Assembly: GCF_017348835.2 (NCBI RefSeq)
Contig: NZ_CP071375.1
Source of the DNA: Escherichia coli
Lineage (GTDB): Bacteria; Pseudomonadota; Gammaproteobacteria; Enterobacterales; Enterobacteriaceae
DNA length: 64,000 bases
Strand: one strand, 5' to 3'
Under the pieces are notes generated by a model. That model searched no databases. It was not told where the DNA came from and saw only the letters and a program-made list of their open reading frames with translations. Below are positions 10,670 to 23,976 of this stretch, one piece after another. The translations under genes and the position numbers were made by a program. Each line of letters opens with the position of its first letter. Within the stretch, counting starts at the first letter, position 1.

Positions 10670-11557
10670 TTATCGGGTCATGTTGATGCCGGATGCTTTC
10701 TGCTCCAGCATACGTTTCGCCAAATCCACAATGACGGCTGCGGCTTCAACCGGCGGCGTGCCGCCCTGGTGAATGTTAGAGATACAGGTGCGATCGGCCT
10801 CAACGGTGGTCGCCATACGCGGCGAGTAAACGGCGTAGCAGGAGAGGCTTTCTGACTGACCCAACCCCGGACGTTCGCCCACCAGCAGGATCACTACTTT
10901 CGCGCCGAGGATCTCACCGATCTGATCTTCAATCTTCACGCGACCATAACGAACAAAGAATGGTGTACCGACTTTCAGCCCGGCCTGTTTCAGGCCCGCC
11001 ATCAGCGGTGGCAGGATCTCTTCGTAGTTCACGGTGATCGCATCAGTTGACAGGCCATCAGAAATAACGACCTGTACGTCCGGATTAGCAACACACTGTG
11101 CTTTCAGCGCTTCAACAGCTTCTGCACACAGGCGGCGGCCCATATCCGGGCGAGTCAGGTAGAGATTTTTGTCGCTAATTTCGGAGCGTACTTCCAGCAA
11201 GCCCTGCGCTTTCACCCACTCTTCCGGCACTTCTTTCAGTACGGTATCTTTCGAACGAGAGTGATCGGCCAGGAAACGCAGCAGCGCCTGGGTACGCGGA
11301 CGCGGACCGGCACGACCGGTACAAACGCGGGCCACGGTGCTGCGGCGCAGTTCTGTTAATACGTCTGCGCGATGCGGGTTTTCAACACCAATCCACGCTT
11401 TTGCTTCAGCGGAACCTAAATCCAGCGCACAGCTTTCCGAGGTCACCGGTGCCGCACAGGTGGTAGTGGCGCACTTTGCTTCTGACGGCGCGGGGGCCGT
11501 TTGTCCCATTGACGCCATCACGCTGCGTACAATTTCTTCAATCTGTTTTTGATCCAT
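10670..11557 (-). CDS. eutC: Ethanolamine ammonia-lyase small subunit
   Basis: 295-aa ORF directly downstream of eutB. Confidence 0.93.
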
Positions 11558-11577: not shown

Positions 11578-12939
11578 TCAGAAGAACAGTGACGGATCGC
11601 CCGCCCGTTTGGTCAGGCGACCGTTTGCCATAATGCCCATGCTTTCCAGCCAGCGTTCAAACTCCGGTGACGGGCGCAGGTTGAGTAACTGACGCACAGT
11701 GGCGGTATCGTGGAATGCGGTGGTCTGGTAATTGAGCATGATGTCATCACCCAGCGGCATCCCCATGATGTAGTTGCAGCCTGCGGTGGCGAGCAGGATC
11801 ATCAGGTTTTCGTTGAGGTTCTGGTCAGCGTCAGCGTGGTTGGTGTAACAGCAGTCACAGCCCATAGAGATGCCGCTCAGCTTGCCCATAAAGTGATCTT
11901 CTAAGCCCGCACGAATAATCTGGCGGTCATTGTAGAGATACTCCGGCCCAATAAAGCCGACCACGGTGTTGACGATAAACGGATCGTAATGACGCGCCAG
12001 CCCGTAGTTACGCGCTTCCATGGTCACCTGGTCTGCGCCGTAGTTGGCACCCGCCGACAGCGCCGAACCTTGCCCGGTTTCGAAGTAGAGGCAGTTTTCC
12101 CCGGCGATACGGTTGAACTCTGCACCCACTGCGCGCGCTTCGTCGAGCATCGCCAGTTCCACGCCAAACTCTTTCAGCCCTTTTTCACTGCCACAGATAC
12201 TCTGGAAAATCAGCCCGCCTGGTGCGCCACGACGAATCGCTTCGATCTGGGTGGTGACGTGCGCCAGTACGCAGCCCTGAGTTGGGATGTTGAATTTGTC
12301 GATCACGCCATAGATGGTGTCCAGCACGCGGCTTAAGTTTTCCACGTCGTCAGTTACCGGGTTGACGCCGATCACCGCATCGCCCACCCCGAAGGAAAGC
12401 CCTTCGTAGATTTGCGCGGCGATACTTTGCACGTCGTCACGGGTGTCATTTGGCTGCAAACGGGCGCTAAAGGTGCCCGGAATACCGATGGTGGTATTGG
12501 CCTTTTTGATTACCGGCATTTTCTTCGCGCCGTAGATCAGGTCCGCGTTGGAGCAAATCTTCGCTACCGCCGCGACCACTTCCGAGGTCAGCCCTTTGCG
12601 GGTAAAGGCAATGTCGTCCACGCTGGTTTCATCGCTCAGCACATACTCACGCAGTTCGCTGATGCTCCAGTTTTTAATCTGGTTGTAGGCCGTTTCGTTA
12701 ACATCGTCCTGAATCAGCCGCGTCACGCAGTCATCTTCATAGGCAATCACCGGATTATTGCGGATGTCCGCTACGGTCATTTCCGACAACACCTGCTTTG
12801 CTGCCACGCGCTCCTGTGAGCTTGCCGCTGCAACGCCCGCCAGCACATCCCCCGAACGCAGTTCGTTGGCTTTAGCCAGCACCTCTTTTACATCCTTAAA
12901 CTGATATACATTGCCGAACAATGTGGTCTTTAGTTTCAT
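11578..12939 (-). CDS. eutB: Ethanolamine ammonia-lyase large subunit
   Basis: ORF trimmed to ATG 12937-12939 (MKLKTTLFGNVYQF...); 453 aa. Confidence 0.93.
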   Translation of the reverse strand: MKLKTTLFGNVYQFKDVKEVLAKANELRSGDVLAGVAAASSQERVAAKQVLSEMTVADIRNNPVIAYEDDCVTRLIQDDVNETAYNQIKNWSISELREYVLSDETSVDDIAFTRKGLTSEVVAAVAKICSNADLIYGAKKMPVIKKANTTIGIPGTFSARLQPNDTRDDVQSIAAQIYEGLSFGVGDAVIGVNPVTDDVENLSRVLDTIYGVIDKFNIPTQGCVLAHVTTQIEAIRRGAPGGLIFQSICGSEKGLKEFGVELAMLDEARAVGAEFNRIAGENCLYFETGQGSALSAGANYGADQVTMEARNYGLARHYDPFIVNTVVGFIGPEYLYNDRQIIRAGLEDHFMGKLSGISMGCDCCYTNHADADQNLNENLMILLATAGCNYIMGMPLGDDIMLNYQTTAFHDTATVRQLLNLRPSPEFERWLESMGIMANGRLTKRAGDPSLFF

Positions 12940-13050
12940 AAGTCGTTCCCTCAGGAAGAAGTGATGAGTGACATTTTTCACAGCCTTCAAACAATTCTAT
13001 TTCATCGTTAACCCTTGTCCTGTAAGGTAATTACCTTAGTACGCCCGCTA

Positions 13051-13087
13051 TTCATCCTGCCGAACGCAACCGAACGCGCCGGATACA
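13051..13087. repeat. Left att-like imperfect direct repeat (ttcatcctgcc..N17..ccggataca)
   Basis: Shares the 11-bp and 9-bp arms at the same spacing with 22476-22511. Confidence 0.5.
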
Positions 13088-13127
13088 TGAGCGGGGTTAT
13101 CGAGTCGTTAGATCGAGGTATCCGGTT

Positions 13128-14333
13128 TTGAGCAAGACACCACTGACAGCAAAGGCCATAGAGGCCGCACAACCGCAGGACAAGCCCTATAAACTCACCG
13201 ATTCACAGACACCTGGCCTGTTTTTGCTGGTCCATCCCAACGGCAGCAAATACTGGCGATTCCGGTATTGGATAGACAAGAAGGAGCGGTTACAGGCTAT
13301 TGGGGTGTATCCGCTGATTAGCCTCAAGGAAGCCCGCAAACGCGCCACAGAGAGCCGTTTACTGATAGCCCAGGGAATTGACCCAATGGATTTGGCACGC
13401 AAGGAGAAAGCCATTGATGCTCTTAATGCTATCGCCAGTTTTAAAGCTGTAGCAGAAGACTGGATGGCTACCAAGGTGAGCGGATGGAGTGAGAGCTATA
13501 CAAAGCAGGTCAGATCGGCACTAGAGAAAGATGTTTACCCCGTGCTAGGTAAGCGGTCGATAGTGGATATAACGGCCCGTGACGTGCTGGCGTTACTACA
13601 GAAAAAGGAGCGCACCGCACCGGAACAAGCCAGGAAATTACGCCAGCGTATCGGGGAGATCTTCAAATTTGCCGTTATCACTGAACTGGTTAACCGGAAT
13701 CCGGTTGCAGATCTGGATACGGCACTGAAAGCCAGACGCCCAGGCCATAACGCGTGGATACCGATTAATGAAATTCCGGCCTTCTACAAAGCCCTTGAGA
13801 GAGCTGGGAGCGTTCAGATTCAGACGGCAATACTTTTGCTCATCCTCACAGCTTTGAGGACGGCAGAATTGCGCCTGATGCGCTGGGAATGGGTAGATCT
13901 GCAATCGGCAACAATCACATTGCCCGCTGAAGTCATGAAGGCCCGCCGACCGCATGTTGTCCCGCTATCCCGGCAGGCGGTCGAGCTATTACAGGACCAG
14001 TTTACCCGCAGCGGATACAGTGCTTTCGTCTTTCCTGGCCGATTCATGGACAAGCCACTTTCAGCCAGTGCCATCCTTAAAGCCCTGGAGCGTATCGGAT
14101 ACAAGTCGATAGCCACAGGCCACGGCTGGCGGACCACCTTTTCAACGGCGCTTAATGAGTCCGGCAGGTACTCACCAGACTGGATCGAAATCCAACTGGC
14201 CCACGTTCCGAAAGGCGTGCGCGGTGTTTATAACCAGGCGGCCTACCTGAAGCAACGACGGGCCATGATGCAGGATTATAGCGACTGTATTGATTCAATA
14301 CTGGCTGGTGACGGTAATCCACTTGAACCGTGA
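13128..14333 (+). CDS. intZ: P4-family tyrosine site-specific integrase
   Basis: 401-aa ORF; AP2-like N-terminal domain; C-terminal catalytic region with R..HGWR..Y signature (HGWRTTFSTAL, RGVYNQAAY); first island gene beside the left repeat. Confidence 0.88.
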   Translation: MSKTPLTAKAIEAAQPQDKPYKLTDSQTPGLFLLVHPNGSKYWRFRYWIDKKERLQAIGVYPLISLKEARKRATESRLLIAQGIDPMDLARKEKAIDALNAIASFKAVAEDWMATKVSGWSESYTKQVRSALEKDVYPVLGKRSIVDITARDVLALLQKKERTAPEQARKLRQRIGEIFKFAVITELVNRNPVADLDTALKARRPGHNAWIPINEIPAFYKALERAGSVQIQTAILLLILTALRTAELRLMRWEWVDLQSATITLPAEVMKARRPHVVPLSRQAVELLQDQFTRSGYSAFVFPGRFMDKPLSASAILKALERIGYKSIATGHGWRTTFSTALNESGRYSPDWIEIQLAHVPKGVRGVYNQAAYLKQRRAMMQDYSDCIDSILAGDGNPLEP

Positions 14334-14455
14334 ACTATAAGGCCGGGTTTATACTCAATATCGACGGTTGAAGCGCTCAAAAAACAACCGTGACAACCGT
14401 CACAAATATGCAATGTCAATGATCTGAATCAATAAATTGCCAATTCTTCGTTTCC

Positions 14456-14470
14456 ACTTTCGAATGAAAG
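14456..14470. repeat. 15-bp motif actttcgaatgaaag, copy 1 (internal inverted repeat ctttc/gaaag)
   Basis: Exact duplicate of 14591-14605. Confidence 0.7.
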
Positions 14471-14590
14471 CAAGATGCAGAAAAATAAATCACCATGAAA
14501 TCATGTACTTATTAATTTTGACCAAATGGTCCAAAATATCCTCGGTGAATCCATGCTTGCCACAGCCAGATGATTAATATTTAACCCATG

Positions 14591-14605
14591 ACTTTCGAAT
14601 GAAAG
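14591..14605. repeat. 15-bp motif actttcgaatgaaag, copy 2
   Basis: Exact duplicate of 14456-14470, 135 bp away, in AT-rich non-coding DNA. Confidence 0.7.
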
Positions 14606-14733
14606 TAAATTGATAAAAAAGTCAGTGTACACTAACTAAATCGAATATTTTTTGCGCTATGTTTGAATGATAATTGAGCAAAACTTTCGCAAGGTGTGAC
14701 GATGTGAGTAATTAATTTTAACTCTACAATAAA

Positions 14734-14791
14734 CCCATCCCGACAGGGATGGTACCTGGAGCGGAGCGAGAGGGACCATCCCCCTGTTTTT
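14734..14791 (+). terminator. Nested hairpins followed by a T-run (terminator-like; may also act on the minus strand)
   Basis: cccatcccgacagggatgg hairpin overlapping ggatggtacc..N16..gggaccatcc stem, then ccctgttttt. Confidence 0.45.
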
Positions 14792-14884
14792 AGTCTTTTG
14801 AAGTTAGTTTTTTAAGGGATTAAATAATTTTGCCTCAAATGAGACCACACCATACAAGGCCAAAAACAATCAGTATTGCGTGGA

Positions 14885-15400
14885 TCAGGCTGGTTTTTTA
14901 ACTATATACCCCGTATGCCAAGGATTCTGATCGCGCGGCATCGGGTCCGCCTTGATAGACTCATAAAACTTATCAGCCATCTCAGCCACAAACTGTACAG
15001 AGGATTCGAACTCAGCGTTTTTGTGTGCGGGAGGAAACCAGAAGTCTAACACGCCAGCATTTCTATTTTTACATACAGCGTATATAAGATAAGCATCAGA
15101 TGTAGGGGTAACTTTTTCGAAACCACCGGGACCATAACGACCAGTAGACCAGTCATCCCAGCATTGTTCTGTCCCGCTATAGCCGTACTGATTGGTATAA
15201 AGACCAATATTTACATGGACTTTACGTAAGTGGATAGGATATACACACGGGGGTTTATGGAAAAGAGTATCCTTTCCAAAATCAGGATGATGTCCATATC
15301 TCCAATGATAAATAAACGAATCCTTAAAGCTCTTTAATTCATCGTTTGTTTTAAACTTATTATCACTGTAGACCTTACCAATAAATTCATTCTGGACCAT
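14885..15400 (-). CDS. Hypothetical protein (171 aa), distal gene of two-gene island cassette
   Basis: ORF 14885-15403; ATG at 15398-15400; overlaps upstream gene by 14 nt; Trp/Tyr/His-rich, no family recognised. Confidence 0.6.
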   Translation of the reverse strand: MVQNEFIGKVYSDNKFKTNDELKSFKDSFIYHWRYGHHPDFGKDTLFHKPPCVYPIHLRKVHVNIGLYTNQYGYSGTEQCWDDWSTGRYGPGGFEKVTPTSDAYLIYAVCKNRNAGVLDFWFPPAHKNAEFESSVQFVAEMADKFYESIKADPMPRDQNPWHTGYIVKKPA

Positions 15401-15734
15401 CAAAGCTTACACTCTTTAAGCGTTCTTCTCGTGAATCGAATAAATCTTTTGATAAATCACACGCTTGTGTGAACGTCATTTTTTTTACTCGTGGTACAGC
15501 CATAGGCGAGGCCGCATTCATCACTTTGTTTTCTTCGTGATCGAGAGTAGCAGTGTAGCGAAACATGACACTTTTACCGCGCACCAACTGGTATCCTAGT
15601 CGATACGCTAACGCGTCAAGATGCGTCAGACGATTTGTTTTACGCAAGCCAGTCATAGCTTTTGGCTTACGAGTGCGCACAGAAAGGGATTTCCCTTCTC
15701 GCTTAGTCGCAAACAAAGTAACTATTTTTGACAT
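15387..15734 (-). CDS. Hypothetical basic protein (115 aa), proximal gene of two-gene island cassette
   Basis: ATG 15732-15734 preceded by GGAGA RBS; Lys/Arg-rich; stop overlaps start of downstream gene. Confidence 0.55.
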   Translation of the reverse strand: MSKIVTLFATKREGKSLSVRTRKPKAMTGLRKTNRLTHLDALAYRLGYQLVRGKSVMFRYTATLDHEENKVMNAASPMAVPRVKKMTFTQACDLSKDLFDSREERLKSVSFDGPE

Positions 15735-16290
15735 GGTATCTCCTGACATCAATCTGCTAAGGCCATTGTGCCTTGTTTGAATAGTAAACTATTCGCCCAA
15801 TCTACACCAGTGATTTTCTTGACGCCAATAGTAAAGGCAGCATTGCCCACCACAGGCAGACAATGAGACTTCAGATAGCGCACCTTCTATCGCGCACGCG
15901 CTCAATAAAACCAACGACACCGCCATCCTGCCTGACCGATGTTTTTAACCAGCGTATACAGAGAAACAGACAACAGCATGAAATCAGCGTATATCCAGGT
16001 GCAGACGGCACTATCACACAACGCACAGCAGGCTGAGGTGAACACTCAAGCAACTTTATCCCCGCCACCGACCACCGCAAACTATCATGACCGTGCCAAA
16101 TTCAAAAGGAATGGCCCATATAACGCGATGAACACACATAAGCGCTACACTTGCTTACCTGAAAACTTCACAGCGTCACAGCGCGTTTTAGACACGTTAA
16201 AATTAATGAGATTTCATTAAATTTTCACCAGACACCGGAACAAGCCTATAAATCAAAAATGAATTACCGACATGCGCCGCTGGCGTTCAC

Positions 16291-16310
16291 AGGAAGAATC
16301 AATAACTTAG
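16291..16310. repeat. Imperfect direct repeat aggaagaatcaataacttag, copy 1
   Basis: 17/20 identical to 16391-16410, exactly 100 bp downstream. Confidence 0.55.
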
Positions 16311-16390
16311 GCCAATGGCGAAAGTTAAACAAAATCAAGAACTTGCAGAAATGCAGGATGAAGCAGCCGATGTGCCCCGTTGGATTTTAC

Positions 16391-16410
16391 CAGAAGAATC
16401 AACAAGTTAG
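16391..16410. repeat. Imperfect direct repeat cagaagaatcaacaagttag, copy 2
   Basis: See 16291-16310. Confidence 0.55.
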
Positions 16411-16662
16411 ACTCGGTGATTTCACCGACTCCTGCCGGACTACTGACCAGATCGAACCATTCCCCAAATTTGGGGAGAGCAAACCACACGCAGATCCTGC
16501 CAGGCTATTTCATCCCACCGCATCACGTATTTGCACACTTCCCCGCTGACGTGCTCATTTTGATAACGAGTTACCCGCTAGCCCTTGCCACATCACCATT
16601 TGTCGCGCTTTGACTAAATTAGCGACGTGCCTGTTATAGCGATACGCTAGTTATGCAGAAAG

Positions 16663-16682
16663 CGCGACATATCCAGCAACCA
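16663..16682. repeat. Exact 20-bp direct repeat cgcgacatatccagcaacca, copy 1
   Basis: Identical to 16790-16809; lies just upstream of the 16707 ORF start. Confidence 0.7.
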
Positions 16683-16706
16683 TGCACCCTACAGAGGAAT
16701 TGAATC

Positions 16707-17159
16707 ATGCGAGACATAGACTGGTCAGCTATCCCTTTCGATGATTTACCGCCCTGGCATCTGGACTGGGACGTAGACCAACGCGAAAACGCGACATATC
16801 CAGCAACCACCAGCATTACAGCGATGCGCCCCGTAAAGCCTAAGAAATACCAGGCAACCGACCTGATAGCTCACCTCAAAGCTATTGGCGGCGTATTTAC
16901 CGGAAGCAAAGACACGCTTGCACATGAAGTATGGCCCCGGAAGACGCCAGCGGGTCGAACCGTTTTACGCTTACTGACCGAACTGTCAGACAACGGCGAC
17001 GCTGTAGTGATTAACCGTGGTCGTTGTGGCGTGGAAGTTATTCTGACGCCGAAGAACAGGGCACAGACGCCTGAATTAAGCGCACCCAAGCAAATGCATA
17101 GCCAAAAATTAAGTCCAGCAGAACGCGTTATATCGCTTTTAAATGGCATCGGATTTTAA
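16707..17159 (+). CDS. Hypothetical protein (150 aa)
   Basis: ORF with GAGG RBS about 10 nt upstream of the ATG; non-repetitive composition; no family recognised. Confidence 0.5.
   Translation: MRDIDWSAIPFDDLPPWHLDWDVDQRENATYPATTSITAMRPVKPKKYQATDLIAHLKAIGGVFTGSKDTLAHEVWPRKTPAGRTVLRLLTELSDNGDAVVINRGRCGVEVILTPKNRAQTPELSAPKQMHSQKLSPAERVISLLNGIGF
16790..16809. repeat. Exact 20-bp direct repeat cgcgacatatccagcaacca, copy 2
   Basis: Inside the 5' end of the 16707 ORF; 127 bp from copy 1. Confidence 0.7.
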
Positions 17160-17185
17160 TTAATTTTGATGTGGTAATTGCAGGC

Positions 17186-17213
17186 AAAAAAATCCCGCCG
17201 GAGAAAGCGGGGA
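17186..17213 (-). terminator. Intrinsic terminator-like hairpin oriented for the minus strand
   Basis: Minus-strand reading ccccgctttctccggcggg followed by U7 (plus strand aaaaaaa-tcccgccggagaaagcgggga). Confidence 0.5.
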
Positions 17214-17446
17214 AGTGAAATCAATCGTTGTAGTTATAGATCACATTTTGGAGTTGAGGATGGCTAATCCTCGCTAATATTATCGCGCCGTTATGTGATG
17301 GGCGCAATTATTTCTTACTAATTAAAAGTTTTGTAAATATTACAGAATATCCCTTTTCACTATATGGTAAAAGATGTGAAACAGGGACATGAGGAATATA
17401 ATATTAAGTATCAACAGTAATGTTGGTCTTTAATTTCATTCAGGGC

Positions 17447-17490
17447 GCGGTGAGGGTTTTCTCCATATTTTTCCTCACCGCTACTTTTTC
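17447..17490 (+). terminator. Terminator/attenuator-like hairpin immediately upstream of the AlpA-like gene
   Basis: gcggtgagg..N17..cctcaccgc stem then tactttttc; a third complementary segment gaggtgag overlaps the RBS of the next gene. Confidence 0.45.
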
Positions 17491-17501
17491 GAGGTGAGAA
17501 C

Positions 17502-17693
17502 ATGAATGATAGCGAATTAATGACGGTGAACGAGGTAGCCGCTTTATTCGGCGTTACCCGTCGGACAATATTCCGGTGGATGAACAAGATTAAAGGCTGG
17601 CCCGTCCCGGTCAGTCCGATTGGCTCAAGAATTAAGTTTATCCGATCTGAGATTTTGGAATTCTATAAAAACAAAGGCGCTCGCCACCAATGA
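17502..17693 (+). CDS. AlpA/Xis-like small DNA-binding regulator (phage transcriptional regulator family)
   Basis: 63-aa ORF with HTH-like segment VNEVAALFGVTRRTIFRWM; GAGGTGA RBS. Confidence 0.65.
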   Translation: MNDSELMTVNEVAALFGVTRRTIFRWMNKIKGWPVPVSPIGSRIKFIRSEILEFYKNKGARHQ

Positions 17694-17769
17694 AAACAGC
17701 TACTGAGATTATCAAATAACCTATTGATTTAAAAAGCTAGCTACCGCAATTTCTGAAGGAATAGGCAGC

Positions 17770-18096
17770 ATGAAAATCAAAGCAAACACAATTAAAGAAA
17801 TAACATCAATCAAAGTAAAAGGAGCAGATGCCATGCATTCATTAGATAGTTATTTTCAGCGCACGACAGCCCCTAAATCAGCCGCCCAGGAACGCCGTGA
17901 GGAATTCCAGGAAAAAGTGATGCGTTCTGCTGATTATATTGCGGACAAGTTCGCGGAAACGGTTCGGCCACTTGTTGATGAAGTAGCTGATAAACTTCAG
18001 TCTGAAATGCCGGAAGACATGGAAGGCACTGCAAAGGCGCGACTCCTTTTTGAATTAAGTCGTCGTTTCGGCGTGTCAATAAGCACTTTTAAATAA
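17770..18096 (+). CDS. Hypothetical phage protein (108 aa)
   Basis: ORF in co-directional island gene string; no family recognised. Confidence 0.5.
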   Translation: MKIKANTIKEITSIKVKGADAMHSLDSYFQRTTAPKSAAQERREEFQEKVMRSADYIADKFAETVRPLVDEVADKLQSEMPEDMEGTAKARLLFELSRRFGVSISTFK

Positions 18097-18113
18097 TCGG
18101 AGGAGGAAAGACA

Positions 18114-18656
18114 ATGGACGCATTTGATGTACTGACAAACAAAGGCGATGAACTGGTAGCACAGCGTGATAAAACCGCCAACGAAGGGGAACGCGCACTG
18201 TTAAATAAGCAGATTAAAGCGATCCGTATGGCCCAGTTTAAATTAATCAGCAATGAAGTTATCGAAAAAATTAAACCGCAGATCCCACAAATCGTTGCTG
18301 ACGCTATTAAAGCCGCCGGACTGGAGAAACGCATTGCCGGGCTGAAAACGAACGCAGAGAAAATGGAGATGCACAAACAGAGCGGTGCTCCGACTCCGGA
18401 TGAGTACTTCTCACCGGATGCTGAGTTTATGGCGCAGGTTGAGGAACGTCTGGGTAGCTGTCTCACCGAGGAACAGTGTCGCTATTTTGATGGAGTGGAT
18501 AGTTCGGCAGGTATTGACCTGAACTCGTATTTCGGTCGTGAAATTGAGCATTTTGATGCCGCCCCGTCTATGCCGGAGCCAGAACCAGAAATGGCCGCCG
18601 ATCCTGAAGCTGAGCAACGGAAACGCGTATTCAATGCGATAGGGATTCGGTACTGA
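18114..18656 (+). CDS. Hypothetical phage protein (180 aa), acidic C-terminus
   Basis: ORF preceded by GGAGGAAAG RBS (18092-18108); no family recognised. Confidence 0.55.
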   Translation: MDAFDVLTNKGDELVAQRDKTANEGERALLNKQIKAIRMAQFKLISNEVIEKIKPQIPQIVADAIKAAGLEKRIAGLKTNAEKMEMHKQSGAPTPDEYFSPDAEFMAQVEERLGSCLTEEQCRYFDGVDSSAGIDLNSYFGREIEHFDAAPSMPEPEPEMAADPEAEQRKRVFNAIGIRY

Positions 18657-18707
18657 TCGGATAAAAGAAAGCCGGGAATTACCCCGGCTGACTTAACAAT
18701 GTGACCA

Positions 18708-19082
18708 ATGAACAAATCGGACAAGACAAACAGGATAAGCAGTCTCGAAACAATGTTCGGGAACTATATTAGCACAAGTCCGGAGAAAATCATCATGTTG
18801 GCACTACGCATCATGCAGGGCATCGCTAAGACCCTCGCAGAACATGTCTTAGACCTGAAACATTCGCCACTGAGCAAACAGGCCATGAAGCGCCAAACGC
18901 TTCGTCTGTGGGCTGAATATTCGCTTGGAACTATCAATAAAATCATCGACATGAAATCGGGGCCGAGCAACCAGAGCGCGGAGGAAATGGAGTTCATCAG
19001 GCGTTTAATTCTCATTCGCAGAGACATTCATAGCCAGTTACACAGCGTGGGAATCGATATTAATGATGGGACGGGCGATTAA
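18708..19082 (+). CDS. Hypothetical phage protein (124 aa)
   Basis: ORF in co-directional gene string. Confidence 0.45.
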   Translation: MNKSDKTNRISSLETMFGNYISTSPEKIIMLALRIMQGIAKTLAEHVLDLKHSPLSKQAMKRQTLRLWAEYSLGTINKIIDMKSGPSNQSAEEMEFIRRLILIRRDIHSQLHSVGIDINDGTGD

Positions 19083-19120
19083 TTTTCGGACAAGTACTAT
19101 GCGCGCGCGAGGAGCTGAAC

Positions 19121-19351
19121 ATGAAGCAAGATATTGCAGACAGGCTGGAGATACTCGAAGGCCAGCGGGCAGAAGCGAAACAACTACGTAAGCAGGCCAG
19201 AAGAGCGCACAGGAACTACGAAGCAGAATCACTGACCGCTTTCATCAACTTCACAAACCGTTGCATCCTGGAGTGTTACAGGGAGGATGCAGAAAACTGG
19301 CTGGATTCATTGCCAGAACAGACTCTGCATGAACTGAACGGCGACCAGTAA
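19121..19351 (+). CDS. Hypothetical phage protein (76 aa)
   Basis: ORF with GAGGAG RBS upstream. Confidence 0.45.
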   Translation: MKQDIADRLEILEGQRAEAKQLRKQARRAHRNYEAESLTAFINFTNRCILECYREDAENWLDSLPEQTLHELNGDQ

Positions 19352-19638
19352 ATAAATCCAGTACGTTTCCCGCAGTGCGCATAACGTACATTATGTGAAA
19401 AACGATATGGATATATATCAGTCTGACTTCAATGAAGAAAACGGACTTCCAGCATCAACCACAAAGAAGTATGGCTAATGCAGCTTTATAAGCCATTGAT
19501 TCTATTAAACGATATTTTTTGTGATTGGTTGAAGCAAACCAAAACACGATGCCACTGAAGCGTTAATAAACTGTTTCAATGTGAAATTATCAGAGTAAAG
19601 AACAATTTGGAGGGTCCGCAAACGCGGATAACAATATC

Positions 19639-21819
19639 ATGAGTGGAAATCTCGGGACCATATACTACGAGGTCGATGCCCGCACTGGGAAACTTCTTAT
19701 CGCGCAACAGCAGGCGGAAGAGGCGTTCGATCGCATTGAACGAGGAGCGCGGAAGGCTGATAGCGGCGTCAAAAAGTTAAATACGCAGATGACTAAAACA
19801 TCAGCCGCAGTCAAAACCAACCTTTCCCCGGCAATCCGTAACGCATCATACCAGATCGCAGACCTTGCCACTCAATTGCAGATGGGCGGTAATGCGCTTC
19901 AGGCGTTCGCTGTGCAGGGTGCGCAGTTATTAGCTGGCTTTGGCACGATGGGCGCGGTAGCTGGCGCGGTGCTGGCTATCGCTGGCGCTATGGGTGGAAG
20001 CCTGGCACAAGGCGCTGATAGTGCAGCCGGATCGGTTGAGTATCTGGACAAGGCGATCACCAAACTGAACGAGGTCATAGCTGTAAATGAACAGGGCGTG
20101 ACGGTGATGAGTGATAGTTACGCCAGACTTTCTAAGGTTAACGCTGAAGTAGCGAAACAGATGCGGAACATGGCTGAAATTCAGGCAATTGCAGCACTGC
20201 GTGACCTGAAAGAACAGGCAAGCCAGGCACAGGGGGAAATGTCGTCATTCTGGCGCAGCTTGCAGGGTGGTAAAGCTGACGCAGCAGCAGCAGCACAGGC
20301 ACTTGATGATCTTGGAATCACAACCAACGACTACAAAGAGGCGATAGCCATACTGAACGCCAATCAGCCGGATACACAGGCGCAAATGGCAACGCTAGCT
20401 AAGTCCGTGATGTACATAGGCGAGGAATACAACCTGACAAACCAGCAAGCCTACGAGTTCATCCGAGCACTAAATAGGGCCGCGACAACGAGAACGCCGG
20501 AAGCCATGCAGGAACTATCGGGCTTCATGCAGGTATTGCTACAGGACACCGAAAACGGTAACGAGGCATTCCGTGAACTGGCTATCAAATTCGTTGATGC
20601 ACAAACCAAAGGCGCAATGCTGGAAGACCAACTAAACCGACTGAAAGGCGCTATCAGTGACGCAGCCACAGAAGCCAGAAACGCCAATTTTACCACTATG
20701 CTCAACACCGTCGCCGCACGCCTGGCAGCCATTGAGCAAGGTTGGGAGGCAGGCGTTAGGATGCAGATGAAAGCCCAGGGCTACACTGAAGAGCAGATCG
20801 ATGAATATGTGAACATGGAAACGGCGTACCGTGATGCAAAAGCCGCTTTGGACGAGAAGAATAAGGCCGACCGTGAAGCTATTGCGCTATCCAAACGCCA
20901 GGCCGCAGAAGCAGCCCGCAAGGCAAAACAGGAAGAAGCTGAAGCACAACGCAAGGCCAAACAGTTAGCCGCGCAGAAGGAGCAGGCAGGACGCTTTACG
21001 CAGCAAGTAATGACGGAATACCTGACGACCGTAGATCCGGCAACAGGCAAGGCGTTTAACCCTGCCGCACAAGTAGAAATGCAGGAGCAGCAGAAGAAAG
21101 CGGCGCTGGATAAATACAGACAGTTGGGCGTCCTGGATGAACAGCAGTACCAGAACACGCTAACCGCCATCCAGAAAACCGCGTCAATGCGCCGCCAGCA
21201 AATCATCAAAGACGAGGCCGACACGTTATTCAACAATCAGCAACAGTTGATCGGCACATTTGGCGATTTCTTCGGTGAACTGTCTGGAGTCATAGCAGAC
21301 GGTGCAGGTGAGCAAAACGCGGCATATCAAGCGCTATTTGCTGTGCAGAAGGGTTTTGTATTGGCATCAGCAGCTTTAAGCCTTCAGAAAGCGCTTGCTG
21401 AGGCAAACGCCTTGCCTTTCCCGGCTAATCTTCCGGCCTATGCGCAAGCTATGTCAGCAGGCACGCAGATCATTTCAGCTATTCGTGGAATAGCTTTCGG
21501 TGGCGGACGCTACAACGGCGGCGCGGTTGGTGCTGGCAACCTGTACCGCGTGGGTGAACACGGTAAGCCTGAGATATTCAAGGCGAACAATGGCAGCCAG
21601 TACATGATCCCAGGTGATAACGGTCGCGTGATAAGTAATCGTGACATTGGCGGCGGTGGCGGCGTAACAATCAACAGCCCGATCACCATTAACACTACGA
21701 ATGGCTTCAGTGATGAAGACTCAAGGCGTCTTGAGGAAGCGATGAAGCGCGTAGCTATGGGCGTTTGCAGGCAGGAGTCAACCAGACCGGGAGGAATGTT
21801 AGCCCCGCGCCGTCGTTAA
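19639..21819 (+). CDS. Phage tail tape-measure-like protein (lambdoid H-like), orphan
   Basis: 726-aa Ala/Gln-rich coiled-coil ORF; C-terminal GNLYR motif and Gly-rich tail as in lambda H; no neighbouring tail genes. Confidence 0.6.
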   Translation: MSGNLGTIYYEVDARTGKLLIAQQQAEEAFDRIERGARKADSGVKKLNTQMTKTSAAVKTNLSPAIRNASYQIADLATQLQMGGNALQAFAVQGAQLLAGFGTMGAVAGAVLAIAGAMGGSLAQGADSAAGSVEYLDKAITKLNEVIAVNEQGVTVMSDSYARLSKVNAEVAKQMRNMAEIQAIAALRDLKEQASQAQGEMSSFWRSLQGGKADAAAAAQALDDLGITTNDYKEAIAILNANQPDTQAQMATLAKSVMYIGEEYNLTNQQAYEFIRALNRAATTRTPEAMQELSGFMQVLLQDTENGNEAFRELAIKFVDAQTKGAMLEDQLNRLKGAISDAATEARNANFTTMLNTVAARLAAIEQGWEAGVRMQMKAQGYTEEQIDEYVNMETAYRDAKAALDEKNKADREAIALSKRQAAEAARKAKQEEAEAQRKAKQLAAQKEQAGRFTQQVMTEYLTTVDPATGKAFNPAAQVEMQEQQKKAALDKYRQLGVLDEQQYQNTLTAIQKTASMRRQQIIKDEADTLFNNQQQLIGTFGDFFGELSGVIADGAGEQNAAYQALFAVQKGFVLASAALSLQKALAEANALPFPANLPAYAQAMSAGTQIISAIRGIAFGGGRYNGGAVGAGNLYRVGEHGKPEIFKANNGSQYMIPGDNGRVISNRDIGGGGGVTINSPITINTTNGFSDEDSRRLEEAMKRVAMGVCRQESTRPGGMLAPRRR

Positions 21820-22315
21820 CCAAATCCCACGCCAGGGGGATAGACTGGCGGCCTTTCAATTCCGTTGAAACGACGGAATCAAACACCCCGATTCAGGGTA
21901 TTTAAACGTCGCGTTTCACGACATTTATCTAAGTCATTGATTTATATTGTAACTCATAATTGAGTTGCGCCGACCATCCCGCCACAAACGCTCCTACGCA
22001 AAAATTCCCTCACAATTACCCTGCCAATTTTCCAGATTTCACGTATACGCGCCTATATCCCCGCCACCGGATACACGCCCGCTTATACCGGATACTTTTA
22101 TGCCATCATTATTAAATCCATTAATAATCATCAAACCATAATTAGCACAACTTATAATCGAACAAAAAACACACAACATTGATAATGATTTTTTCTGGTT
22201 ATACTTATCTAAAAAAGTGGTATGGGAAGTAACTTATTGTTTTGTAATTACAAATTTATTGCGTGGTCAGATGAACAGACTTGCGCACCTCCCGAAAAAC
22301 ACGCGAAAATCGAAG

Positions 22316-22426
22316 TGTTCTTTCTTTTTTTGTTTTTTATTTTTTTATTTTCTCTTTTTCTTCTCTTTCCGGTTCTCTTCTTTTTCTGGTTTTGGTTTTT
22401 TCCTTTTTTATTTTTATTCTTTCTTC
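22316..22426. repeat. ~110-nt homopyrimidine (T/C-rich) low-complexity tract
   Basis: About 90% pyrimidine on the top strand by eye; no plausible coding frame. Confidence 0.7.
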
Positions 22427-22475
22427 AGGGTTGTGATCAAACACACCAAAACATTTTCGCCACAAAAGCGTTAAT

Positions 22476-22511
22476 TTCATCCTGCCAGACCATTCACTTT
22501 CACCGGATACA
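22476..22511. repeat. Right att-like imperfect direct repeat (ttcatcctgcc..N16..ccggataca)
   Basis: Partner of 13051-13087; a further partial copy (caccggatacac) at 22065-22076. Confidence 0.5.
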
Positions 22512-22572
22512 CAGCCGGATATAATCCCGCTAACACCCAGCCACCCAGCATCACGCCTGATAACTACCGTAT

Positions 22573-23976
22573 TCAGGAAGGAAATGCGAGTGATTTCACC
22601 GTCACCGGCACAACCGATCCGCCAAAAAGAGGCGTACCAATGTCGATATAGTCCCCCGCGCGGACAATCACTTCGTCAATGACTGCCAACGGGAGTTGTT
22701 GTAGCTGTGGGCGCAACAACATGCCCAGAGCTTTACCAAAGTCCTGCCCGGCCACCACCAGCAGGGGATGCGGATTCGGAAAACGCGCGACGAAATCGAC
22801 CAACGCGTTGATGACCGTCAGTACCGCGGCGTAACGCACAGGCAGCGAGGCGGGAAGCGCCAGCACGTACGCGTCAGTTTTGGGATCAAGATCCAGCTGA
22901 ATCAGCGCCTGTTGCCAGGCACTCACCAGATCCGTTTCATCAATCGGGATCGCCACCGGCAAATTGCGCAGCGGCAGTTGTACGCCCTCCAGCCAGATTG
23001 TGCTGCCAGAGAGCGAAAGGGTATGTGCACCCGCGCCAATCACCGTGGCGCGTACGGTTTGCGCCGGAAACTGCACGTTCATCTCACGCAGGCGCGGATG
23101 GTCATGCAGCGCCGTTGCCAGAAGCGGGCCAATATCGGCAAAACAGAACGGGTCGGCGGGCTGGTGGCGATAACATTCGCCCACGCCGCCAGAAAGCGTA
23201 ATGATTTCGGGCGTAACACCTGCGGGCAGCAAACCGGTTTGCATTAATGCCTGCGCGAGCGGCGAAAGCGTTCCGTCAATCACTTCGACAATCAGCTCTG
23301 CCATCCGCCAGGTAACCTGCACCAGCTGCGCGCCGGTCAGCGAACGGGCGTCGGTGCCTGCGCCGAAGCACTCATCCACAATCATCTGCCCCGGTTTATG
23401 AGCGTAAACCACGCGCCCCTGGCTGTCGGTTTCCAGCAGGCGACCACCGACGTTGAGGCAGGCAGTGCCGCTGATTTTTCCGGCATCGAACAGGGCGTAG
23501 TTCGCGGTGCCACCGCCGATGTCGATATTCAGTACCCGACACAGCCGTTGTTCAGAAAGGGTTTGCGCCCCGGCACCGTGACCGGCGATCACGGATTCGA
23601 GGTGCGGCCCGGCGCTGGCGACGACAAAATCGCCCAGCGACTGAGAGAGCGCCATCACCGCCGGGCGAGCATTGCGGGTTTTCGCGCTTTCACCGGTGAT
23701 GATGATGGCACCAGAATCAACGCTTTCCGGCGCAATGCCCGCAGCCTGATATTGCTCTAAAATCAGCGATTTCAGTTCCGCTTCTTTTAAACCACCCTGT
23801 TTATCGACAGGGGTAAAGAACACCGGGCTTTGCCAGCTAATTTCGCGTTTGATGAATTCGTAGCGCGGCACCTGCGACACCGCCGCACGGTTAACCAGTT
23901 CCAGGTGGGAGAAAATCACCTGGGTGGTGGTGGTGCCGATATCGATACCGACGCTCAGTAGCTGGCGAGTGTTCAC
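22573..23976 (-). CDS. eutA: Ethanolamine ammonia-lyase reactivating factor
   Basis: 467-aa ORF; conserved eut order. Confidence 0.92.
   Translation of the reverse strand: MNTRQLLSVGIDIGTTTTQVIFSHLELVNRAAVSQVPRYEFIKREISWQSPVFFTPVDKQGGLKEAELKSLILEQYQAAGIAPESVDSGAIIITGESAKTRNARPAVMALSQSLGDFVVASAGPHLESVIAGHGAGAQTLSEQRLCRVLNIDIGGGTANYALFDAGKISGTACLNVGGRLLETDSQGRVVYAHKPGQMIVDECFGAGTDARSLTGAQLVQVTWRMAELIVEVIDGTLSPLAQALMQTGLLPAGVTPEIITLSGGVGECYRHQPADPFCFADIGPLLATALHDHPRLREMNVQFPAQTVRATVIGAGAHTLSLSGSTIWLEGVQLPLRNLPVAIPIDETDLVSAWQQALIQLDLDPKTDAYVLALPASLPVRYAAVLTVINALVDFVARFPNPHPLLVVAGQDFGKALGMLLRPQLQQLPLAVIDEVIVRAGDYIDIGTPLFGGSVVPVTVKSLAFPS

Follow-up and report, generated by a model that had tools for sequence, protein, structure and literature searches.

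Two exact copies of a 15-bp sequence, ACTTTCGAATGAAAG, lie in a conserved noncoding module (NC) of a small genomic island within the stretch of Escherichia coli DNA analysed here (64 kb in all, referred to below as the window). Judging from their sequence, we conclude that these copies (O1 and O2), 135 bp apart, are probably operators for YciT, a host repressor of sugar metabolism that belongs to the DeoR family. The putative site takes the form of a 6-2-6 near-palindrome, CTTTCG-AA-TGAAAG, that is also found at promoters of the host chromosome linked to YciT, and both copies are sharply conserved within an otherwise variable region.

The two copies are located at positions 14456–14470 and 14591–14605 on the + strand, with a start-to-start distance of 135 bp that corresponds to ∼13 helical turns. 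A scan tolerating up to two mismatches recovered the same two copies only within the window; shuffled sequences in which dinucleotide composition was preserved contained a mean of 0.13 copies, with 0 of 100 shuffles containing two. The likeness between the copies reaches 30 nucleotides at 80% identity (repeat family D7). A relaxed core, TTTCNNNTGAAA, matches both NC copies and nowhere else in the window, and the + strand of the island has ACTTTCG at just three positions (14456, 14591 and 14683). The gap that holds the motif extends for 551 bp, from the stop codon of intZ (14333) to the stop codon of a yafO-family toxin gene (14885); its longest open reading frames (ORFs) are 40–47 aa, its GC content is 33% (0.327 over positions 14400–14699), and it carries no RefSeq annotation in strain PE164, which is 100% identical over the region queried. 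The preliminary description of this locus, made from the sequence alone, had reported two exact copies at this spacing in an AT-rich stretch of ∼550 bp lacking any ORF of 60 aa or more, and all of this is borne out by the exact search, the shuffles and the composition of the gap. The inverted repeat (ctttc/gaaag) that it had noted in each copy is likewise present, as CTTTC-GAAT-GAAAG, and a search for the motif elsewhere found no third copy in the 64 kb and a pair that is conserved in the alleles of related islands. The nearest other match to the palindrome, CTTTCGAACGAGAG (11248–11261, inside eutC), has one mismatch to CTTTCNNNNGAAAG and is the same in E. coli K-12; it is probably a chance occurrence within coding sequence.

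Full-text search traced the motif to oligonucleotides of the Salmonella pflE promoter, of which the pair 212a/b contain the 14-mer core of the ybiY palindrome (PMC3326293). The promoter of the E. coli ortholog of pflE, ybiY, reads TTGACGCACATCAA-TCTA-ACTTTCATTCGAAAGT-ATTTTAAT and holds the reverse complement of positions 14591–14606 of the window. O2 (ACTTTCGAATGAAAGT) is thus identical at 16 of 16 positions to K-12 863545–863560, in the ybiY-fsaA intergenic region, and with its flank included it matches the fsaA-facing side of the ybiY-fsaA operator at 23 of 25 aligned positions. In the K-12 sequence that was examined (22 kb), the core TTTCGAATGAAAGT has three copies, which occupy the intergenic regions immediately 5′ of ybiY, ybiV and ybiU. 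The palindrome is positioned between an FNR box and the −10 element at ybiY, over the TATAAT sequence at ybiV, and in the 5′ untranslated region at ybiU. The conserved core of O1 (TTTCGAATGAAAG, 14458–14470) matches the K-12 sites at all three genes.

Published data link these same promoters to YciT. Upon deletion of yciT, expression changes (log2) by +7.74 for ybiY, +7.04 for ybiU, +3.53 for ybiW, +2.20 for ybiV and +1.78 for fsaA, with ybiY, ybiU and ybiW displaying the largest increases of the data set (PMC8464067, Dataset S6). Chromatin immunoprecipitation with exonuclease treatment (ChIP-exo) placed YciT peaks at ybiY and ybiV, with signal-to-noise ratios of 45 and 24, among 49 peaks listed (PMC8464067, Dataset S4). 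YciT was recovered from the ybiY promoter by DNA-affinity mass spectrometry in a Reg-Seq study that reads it as a repressor there (10.1101/2025.05.13.653802), and the same approach supports YciT at the phnA promoter, tabulated as a single-repressor architecture; a figure reprinted in the latter report gives ∼82–104 YciT copies per cell (PMC7567609). A published model for ybiYW has the genes repressed in air and released from repression by anaerobiosis.

To place the ChIP-exo peaks in the current K-12 frame, coordinates were converted with offsets of +776, +1975 and +1977, chosen according to the two reference versions and to the fit. A palindrome of the CTTTC-N4-GAAAG type is centred in 5 of the 12 peaks tested, compared to 1.5% of random 110-bp windows: these are yfcV (CTTTCCGAATGAAAG; the strongest peak), rdcA/phnA (TTTTCATTTGAAAG), sixA (CTTTCATCTGAAAC), pdeR (TTTTCAAACGAAAG) and ybiO (CTTTCGGGTGAAAG). 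The island sites therefore carry the sequence features of YciT-linked host sites, namely the complete match to ybiY, the core common to ybiV and ybiU, and the palindrome recurring at peaks. The presumed regulator is also encoded by the host species at large: yciT is a core gene, near-universal in E. coli (5422 of 5426 complete genomes).

Sequence variation within the module is consistent with a function for these sites. A survey of 27 distinct NC alleles, with a mean identity of 91%, was combined with a 19-allele alignment of the region that was divided into 328 overlapping 14-column windows (mean pairwise diversity 0.143). In that alignment copy 1 has a diversity of 0.038 (rank 13 of 328) and copy 2 a diversity of 0.014 (rank 2 of 328), and both are among the four least variable non-overlapping windows, together with AGCAAAACTTTCGC (14677–14690, diversity 0) and TGAATCAATAAATT (0.033). 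Among the 27 alleles, copy 2 varies only by a G-to-T change in its central spacer (two alleles, including the 83% allele of strain ATCC 8739), copy 1 displays five single-allele changes, none of which is compensatory, and the 135-bp spacing is maintained in 25. The low diversity of the repeats in so variable a region argues that they are functional elements rather than a recent accident. The divergence of NC and that of intZ are uncoupled (one allele differs by 13% in NC and by 1.4% in intZ), indicating that the NC block recombines independently. Both sites are moreover kept on a plasmid copy of the module that is 83.5% identical at the nucleotide level, while the island proteins encoded near it are mostly 24–47% identical to their counterparts, which points to a conserved binder that is not encoded by the island. 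The preliminary description had suggested, in general terms, a dyad-symmetric operator or regulator-binding site, and the conserved footprint and the identity to the ybiY promoter palindrome lend support to that reading.

Several observations weigh against assigning the sites to YciT. Neither consensus searches nor a weight-matrix scan found a convincing promoter on which the sites could act, and an IHF-like site in the module lies outside the O1–O2 interval rather than between the two operators. YciT occupancy of the island sites is a prediction from their sequence. The text of the YciT papers prints no logo for this protein, and so the equation of the palindrome with its operator is drawn from peak coordinates and sequence. 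At ybiY and ybiV, the ChIP-exo peaks are centred ∼100–150 bp away from the palindromes. The Reg-Seq text puts YciT at about −5 and describes, at about −20, a footprint of activator type that has no explanation, neither of which is mapped onto the palindrome; in that same text, the authors remark that their own ybiY YciT site and that of ChIP-exo are ∼100 bases apart, in agreement with the palindrome (10.1101/2025.05.13.653802). Finally, two YciT ChIP-exo peaks inside CPZ-55, a cryptic prophage of K-12 related to the island, have no palindrome and instead share AGATGGGAGGTGAA; they were dropped as evidence for a direct link between YciT and the island. By gene description, 6 of the 49 listed peaks are in cryptic prophage or KpLE2 DNA (ykfC, ybcK, yfdQ, yffQ, yffS and yjhU; PMC8464067, Dataset S4), the corresponding K-12 loci in our set being L073 (CPZ-55) and L078 (CPS-53).

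With respect to what YciT might control, the best weight-matrix hit in the module, TTGCCA-17-TCGAAT, has no A at −11 and is not conserved among alleles. Hexamers resembling a −10 element abut both copies of the motif on the + strand (TAAAAT, in most alleles, and TAAATT); they vary among alleles and have no evident −35 element. These hexamers, together with the likeness of O2 to the fsaA-facing side of the ybiY-fsaA operator, make a rightward, YciT-controlled promoter within NC plausible. In the mechanism that we propose, YciT would occupy O1 and O2 on the island, and a YciT oligomer would probably bridge them, by analogy with DeoR-family repressors that act at multiple operators. The bound protein would silence a weak promoter within NC, or act as a roadblock to transcription between intZ and the cargo genes, and repression would be lifted by a YciT ligand or an inducing condition. 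One can speculate further that NC is a mobile, YciT-gated cassette (a promoter, or an unstructured small RNA, between terminator-like hairpins) by which a satellite-like island times its mobilisation or the expression of its cargo in response to a sugar-phosphate or anaerobiosis signal of the host, or else that it is a YciT decoy that derepresses the host ybiUVWY glycyl-radical-enzyme pathway, an idea that stems from the scarcity of YciT (∼100 molecules per cell). We consider such elaborations unlikely, if still worth stating.

The elements mapped in the module are listed in the following table.

Table 1. Candidate sites and structures in the conserved noncoding module (coordinates are those of the window)
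Feature	Position	Strand	Basis
NC, conserved noncoding module (∼460 bp)	14348–14820		Limits of BLAST homology block
Short palindrome cGTGA-N6-TCACA followed by T run	14388–14405	−	Terminator scan
Predicted IHF-type site AATCAATAAATTG	14427–14439	+	Perfect match to WATCAANNNNTTR; diversity 0.033
O1, motif copy 1 ACTTTCGAATGAAAG, candidate YciT operator	14456–14470		Exact repeat, low diversity, host-site match
Imperfect palindrome TTTTGACCAAATGGTCCAAAA between O1 and O2	14516–14536		Allele alignment
O2, motif copy 2 ACTTTCGAATGAAAGT, candidate YciT operator	14591–14606		16/16 match to ybiY, low diversity
Third element AGCAAAACTTTCGCAAGG	14677–14694		Left half ACTTTCG (14683–14689) common to O1 and O2, same orientation
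Hairpin pair CCCATCCC / GGGATGG(TACC) / GG(G)ACCATCCCC followed by T run	14734–14791		Terminator-like on − strand by scan

The ACTTTCG half-site of the third element lies 92 bp beyond copy 2, and columns 14677–14690 of the element are invariant both in the 19-allele set and in all 27 alleles. It is possibly a half-operator, with a right half so degenerate that binding there can only be supposed. The IHF-type site, 17 bp before copy 1, is predicted by its perfect match to the IHF consensus, WATCAANNNNTTR, and falls in the third least variable window. It is overlapped by a palindrome, TGAT-N4-ATCA (14420–14431), that is FNR-box-like (9 of 10 positions). The short palindrome at the left of the module might stop leftward transcription as a weak intrinsic terminator or else be a CRP-like site, and is lost in 4 of the 27 alleles (L010, L056, L066 and L072). 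The imperfect palindrome between O1 and O2 is kept in most alleles and replaced in two (L007 and L071), with no compensatory changes.

The hairpin pair that forms the right border of the module corresponds to a 41-bp unit (CCATCCC..GGGATGGTACC..GGGACCATCCC), and terminator-like hairpins are found at both module borders. The unit is present in 0–4 copies among strains (none in L010 and L054, two in L058, three in L006, and four places in strain ES5). We considered that it might be a dispersed repeat and rejected this, as the unit is confined to this locus, where it is repeated in tandem. The most divergent alleles, of the L008 type, contain compensatory double changes in the hairpin (A-T to G-C and T-A to A-T), and the unit looks like a bidirectional terminator with a slipping copy number.

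The island itself (9.6 kb, 12972–22572) is inserted between eutB and eutA, its limits having been set against thousands of genomes in which the site is empty, and belongs to the family of CPZ-55. The two ends of the island are marked by imperfect 21-bp copies of the 3′ end of eutA, which form the attachment (att) cores (12951–12971, TCAGGAAGAAGTGATGAGTGA; 22573–22593, TCAGGAAGGAAATGCGAGTGA), and insertion therefore gives eutA a replacement 3′ end. The island genes encode an integrase, an AlpA/excisionase-type helix-turn-helix (HTH) protein, several uncharacterised small proteins and a 726-aa protein (19639–21819) with strong matches to tape-measure proteins (phrog_1538, E = 3e-103); no other virion or replication genes were found in the island. 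A variant in strain ES5 (L011, 9753–10163) includes an extra gene annotated as terminase small subunit (TerS)-like. On account of the integrase, the AlpA-type HTH protein, and the tape-measure-like and TerS-like genes, the family looks like a phage satellite or prophage remnant, and the island may be a satellite type that has not been described or such a remnant. NC is positioned between intZ (13128–14333, + strand) and a variable cargo, in this island the yafO-family toxin gene (14885–15403, − strand). Its borders are constant whatever follows: the yafO pair, uncharacterised small genes, or more unannotated DNA.

NC is present in 51 of 5426 complete E. coli genomes (∼1%), always directly after intZ and at 83–100% identity, on one IncFIB plasmid, and on 10 metagenome contigs, all of E. 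coli type and 89–100% identical to known alleles. K-12 CPZ-55 is without it, and K-12 is the strain in which the YciT ChIP-exo was carried out. On the plasmid the module is inverted relative to the alpA operon, no integrase is found nearby, the AlpA-like protein is 37% identical, and one protein is 84% identical to that of a single chromosomal variant. A degenerate motif-pair scan did not find NC in 100,044 species-representative genomes, returning instead 41 loci with unrelated repeats (from Clostridia, cyanobacteria, archaea and others), none of them in Enterobacterales. Those from Clostridia metagenome-assembled genomes of the mouse gut (L020–L030 and L035–L041), some with many degenerate-pair matches per genome, represent dispersed or tandem repeat families, and two cyanobacterial loci from Limnoraphis/Lyngbya (L043 and L044), with six matches each, likewise belong to unrelated repeat families.

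A number of other features of the island were also recorded. An unannotated 93-aa ORF (15939–16220; 87 aa in L008, 3536–3799) lies in a DNA block that is 84–87% identical and kept in islands lacking the toxin-antitoxin pair; neither NCBIfam nor PADLOC places it in a family, and searches of these two resources with the neighbouring small cargo proteins gave nothing useful. An unannotated 950-bp gap upstream of a 150-aa ORF contains a 44-nucleotide repeat (16267–16310 and 16367–16410; 75% identity, 100 bp apart), and the start of that ORF is straddled by a 25-nucleotide direct repeat (16658–16682 and 16785–16809; 96% identity, 127 bp apart). Near the right end of the island is a 120-bp tract of nearly pure T/C (22314–22433), to which RefSeq assigns a hypothetical protein of 47 aa (− strand).

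The alternative that survives best grants that the sites bind YciT, or once did, and holds that they have no role, NC being the decaying remains of a captured YciT-regulated catabolic promoter region. Such an origin would account for the several host-type sites in the module (CRP-like, FNR-like and YciT-type, plus the IHF consensus), for the lack of any gene clearly driven by it, and for an overall NC divergence (10–22%) that is not below the divergence at fourfold sites in intZ. It does not sit easily with sites that form sharp islands of conservation amid a mean diversity of 14%, in alleles that have recombined independently of intZ, or with the 135-bp spacing of 25 of the 27 alleles; nor did the species-representative genomes contain a source locus with two such sites 105–135 bp apart. 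We regard this explanation as improbable.

We view as slightly less probable again the possibility that the repeats act at the level of RNA, whether as a pair of small hairpins in a small RNA or leader of the island or as elements of the promoter from which such an RNA is transcribed. Each copy can be folded as a hairpin of 5–6 bp, and the terminator-like hairpins that flank NC on both strands would suit a self-contained transcription unit. No Rfam family matches the module, however, and a scan of 12500–18500 returned only a sub-threshold GcvB-like match elsewhere. RNAalifold gives a consensus of only −11 kcal/mol across 369 columns, with covariation contributing −0.8 kcal/mol, the structure conservation index is 0.06–0.49 on the two strands at 91% mean identity (far below that of structured RNAs), stem variants are uncompensated, and z-scores for single-sequence folds are −1.0 and −1.8; a conserved fold with covariation was thus not seen among the 27 alleles. 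Consensus and weight-matrix scans of NC yielded no conserved sigma-70 promoter, and inspection by eye for sigma-54, sigma-32, sigma-E and sigma-28 promoters gave no convincing match. The earlier suggestion that the motifs are promoter elements of a small RNA accordingly found no support, there being neither an acceptable sigma-70 promoter nor a conserved RNA structure. A type I toxin-antitoxin locus was also considered and rejected: no ORF is shared by the 27 alleles with both start and stop unchanged, single-base indels are common, and the candidate small ORFs lack a Shine-Dalgarno sequence.

The sites might instead be operators for a regulator encoded by the island, such as the AlpA-like HTH protein, an antitoxin-like protein of 115/121 aa, or the arm-binding domain of IntZ. 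Their dyad symmetry fits a dimeric binder, they adjoin intZ in every chromosomal copy, and the island does encode a protein of the AlpA/excisionase type. Yet both sites are kept in alleles from which the toxin-antitoxin pair is missing (L005, L006, L008 and L009), strain ATCC 8739 has no annotated AlpA-like gene and no match across the alpA stretch, and the plasmid copy has no nearby integrase and, as described above, only a distant AlpA-like protein. No further copy of the motif is found near the int or alpA promoters, and the motif is identical to operators of the host. We consequently give this explanation little chance, and the AlpA-like and 115-aa basic proteins, put forward in the preliminary description as binders, are not supported as such, given that alleles without the toxin-antitoxin pair or an annotated AlpA-like gene keep the sites.

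The same is true of the recombinase-site reading that it had offered. The attL and attR arms contain different repeats, CCGGATAC and TCATCCTGCC, that are unlike the motif, and the motif is ∼1.5 kb inside the island, so we rejected the view that its copies are integrase arm-type or excisionase sites of attP. The repeats of the arms are themselves probably integrase or excisionase sites: CCGGATAC is repeated in both arms (13079–13086, 13118–13125, 22067 and 22503), and TCATCCTGCC is found ∼90 bp inside each island end (13052–13061 and 22478–22487) and again internally (15924–15932 and 16494–16501). The internal copies suggest that successive elements accreted in tandem at one site to give the island.

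Least probable of all is that NC is a cis site for a helper phage or for mobilisation of the island (pac/cos, an origin with iterons, or oriT) at which the repeats bind a terminase small subunit or an initiator: although the module is AT-rich, with an IHF consensus and a central palindrome that has repeated sites on both sides, works as a unit whichever way it is turned with respect to the alpA operon and accompanies a tape-measure-like gene and, in some variants, a TerS-like gene, it has no similarity among 50,697 phage records (nothing at E ≤ 1e-3, and no more than noise of 38 bits with the threshold relaxed to E ≤ 10), the motif pair has no match in IMG/VR viral contigs, NC contains no lambda cosN, the island has no detected replication gene, identity is 38% for the TerS-like proteins (plasmid variant against ES5 variant) as compared with 83.5% for NC, and the identity to host YciT-target promoters is left unexplained. 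A phage cos/pac site was rejected on the same grounds. Sites for ArgR, Fur, CpxR, OmpR, TyrR, H-NS and Cra, sought by their consensus sequences, gave only partial matches in this AT-rich DNA and were dropped.

If YciT truly occupies O1 and O2, then a small CPZ-55-family island is connected to a metabolic repressor of its host, which would be an example of control of an island by a host factor as opposed to its own regulators. The island would also constitute a second, independent context for YciT operators, in which they are paired at a fixed spacing and accompanied by natural variants, and it would offer a handle on an otherwise opaque conserved noncoding module carried by ∼1% of E. coli. The YciT operator appears to be readable from published peak lists as CTTTCR-NN-TGAAAG, which may aid annotation of the ybi regulon. 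These results do not upset current understanding.

The closest known counterparts of the island sites are the E. coli YciT sites at ybiY-fsaA, ybiV and ybiU. These share with them the full 16 positions of ACTTTCGAATGAAAGT (ybiY) or the core TTTCGAATGAAAGT (all three), and are likewise found in noncoding, AT-rich DNA with an FNR-like box nearby. The host sites differ in being single and located at defined promoters, whereas those of the island form a directly oriented pair, 135 bp apart, on a mobile element. DeoR, at deoO1/O2/OE, and GlpR, at the glp operons, are oligomeric repressors that act through several operators, and their near-palindromic sites, like those of the island, lie within a range of roughly one hundred to several hundred base pairs; the likeness is one of operator layout. 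The immunity region of phage P4 (seqA/seqC direct repeats, the targets of CI RNA) and the c4 system of P1/P7 also combine short direct repeats with noncoding DNA, on an integrase-bearing, satellite-type element without a protein repressor gene. The island differs from them in having no C4 match in Rfam, no seqB-like complement beyond the dyad of the motif itself and no conserved RNA structure, and in that its motif corresponds to a host protein operator. Repeated short sites and an IHF consensus in AT-rich DNA are similarly features of the lambda cosB R sites and the P1 pac hexamers, and the island too is possibly packaged by a helper; its sites, in contrast, are spaced much more widely and are associated with neither cosN nor similarity to phage DNA. 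What is known here, then, is a class of binding sites for a recently characterised host factor; what is unusual is their placement on a mobile element and their conserved pairing.

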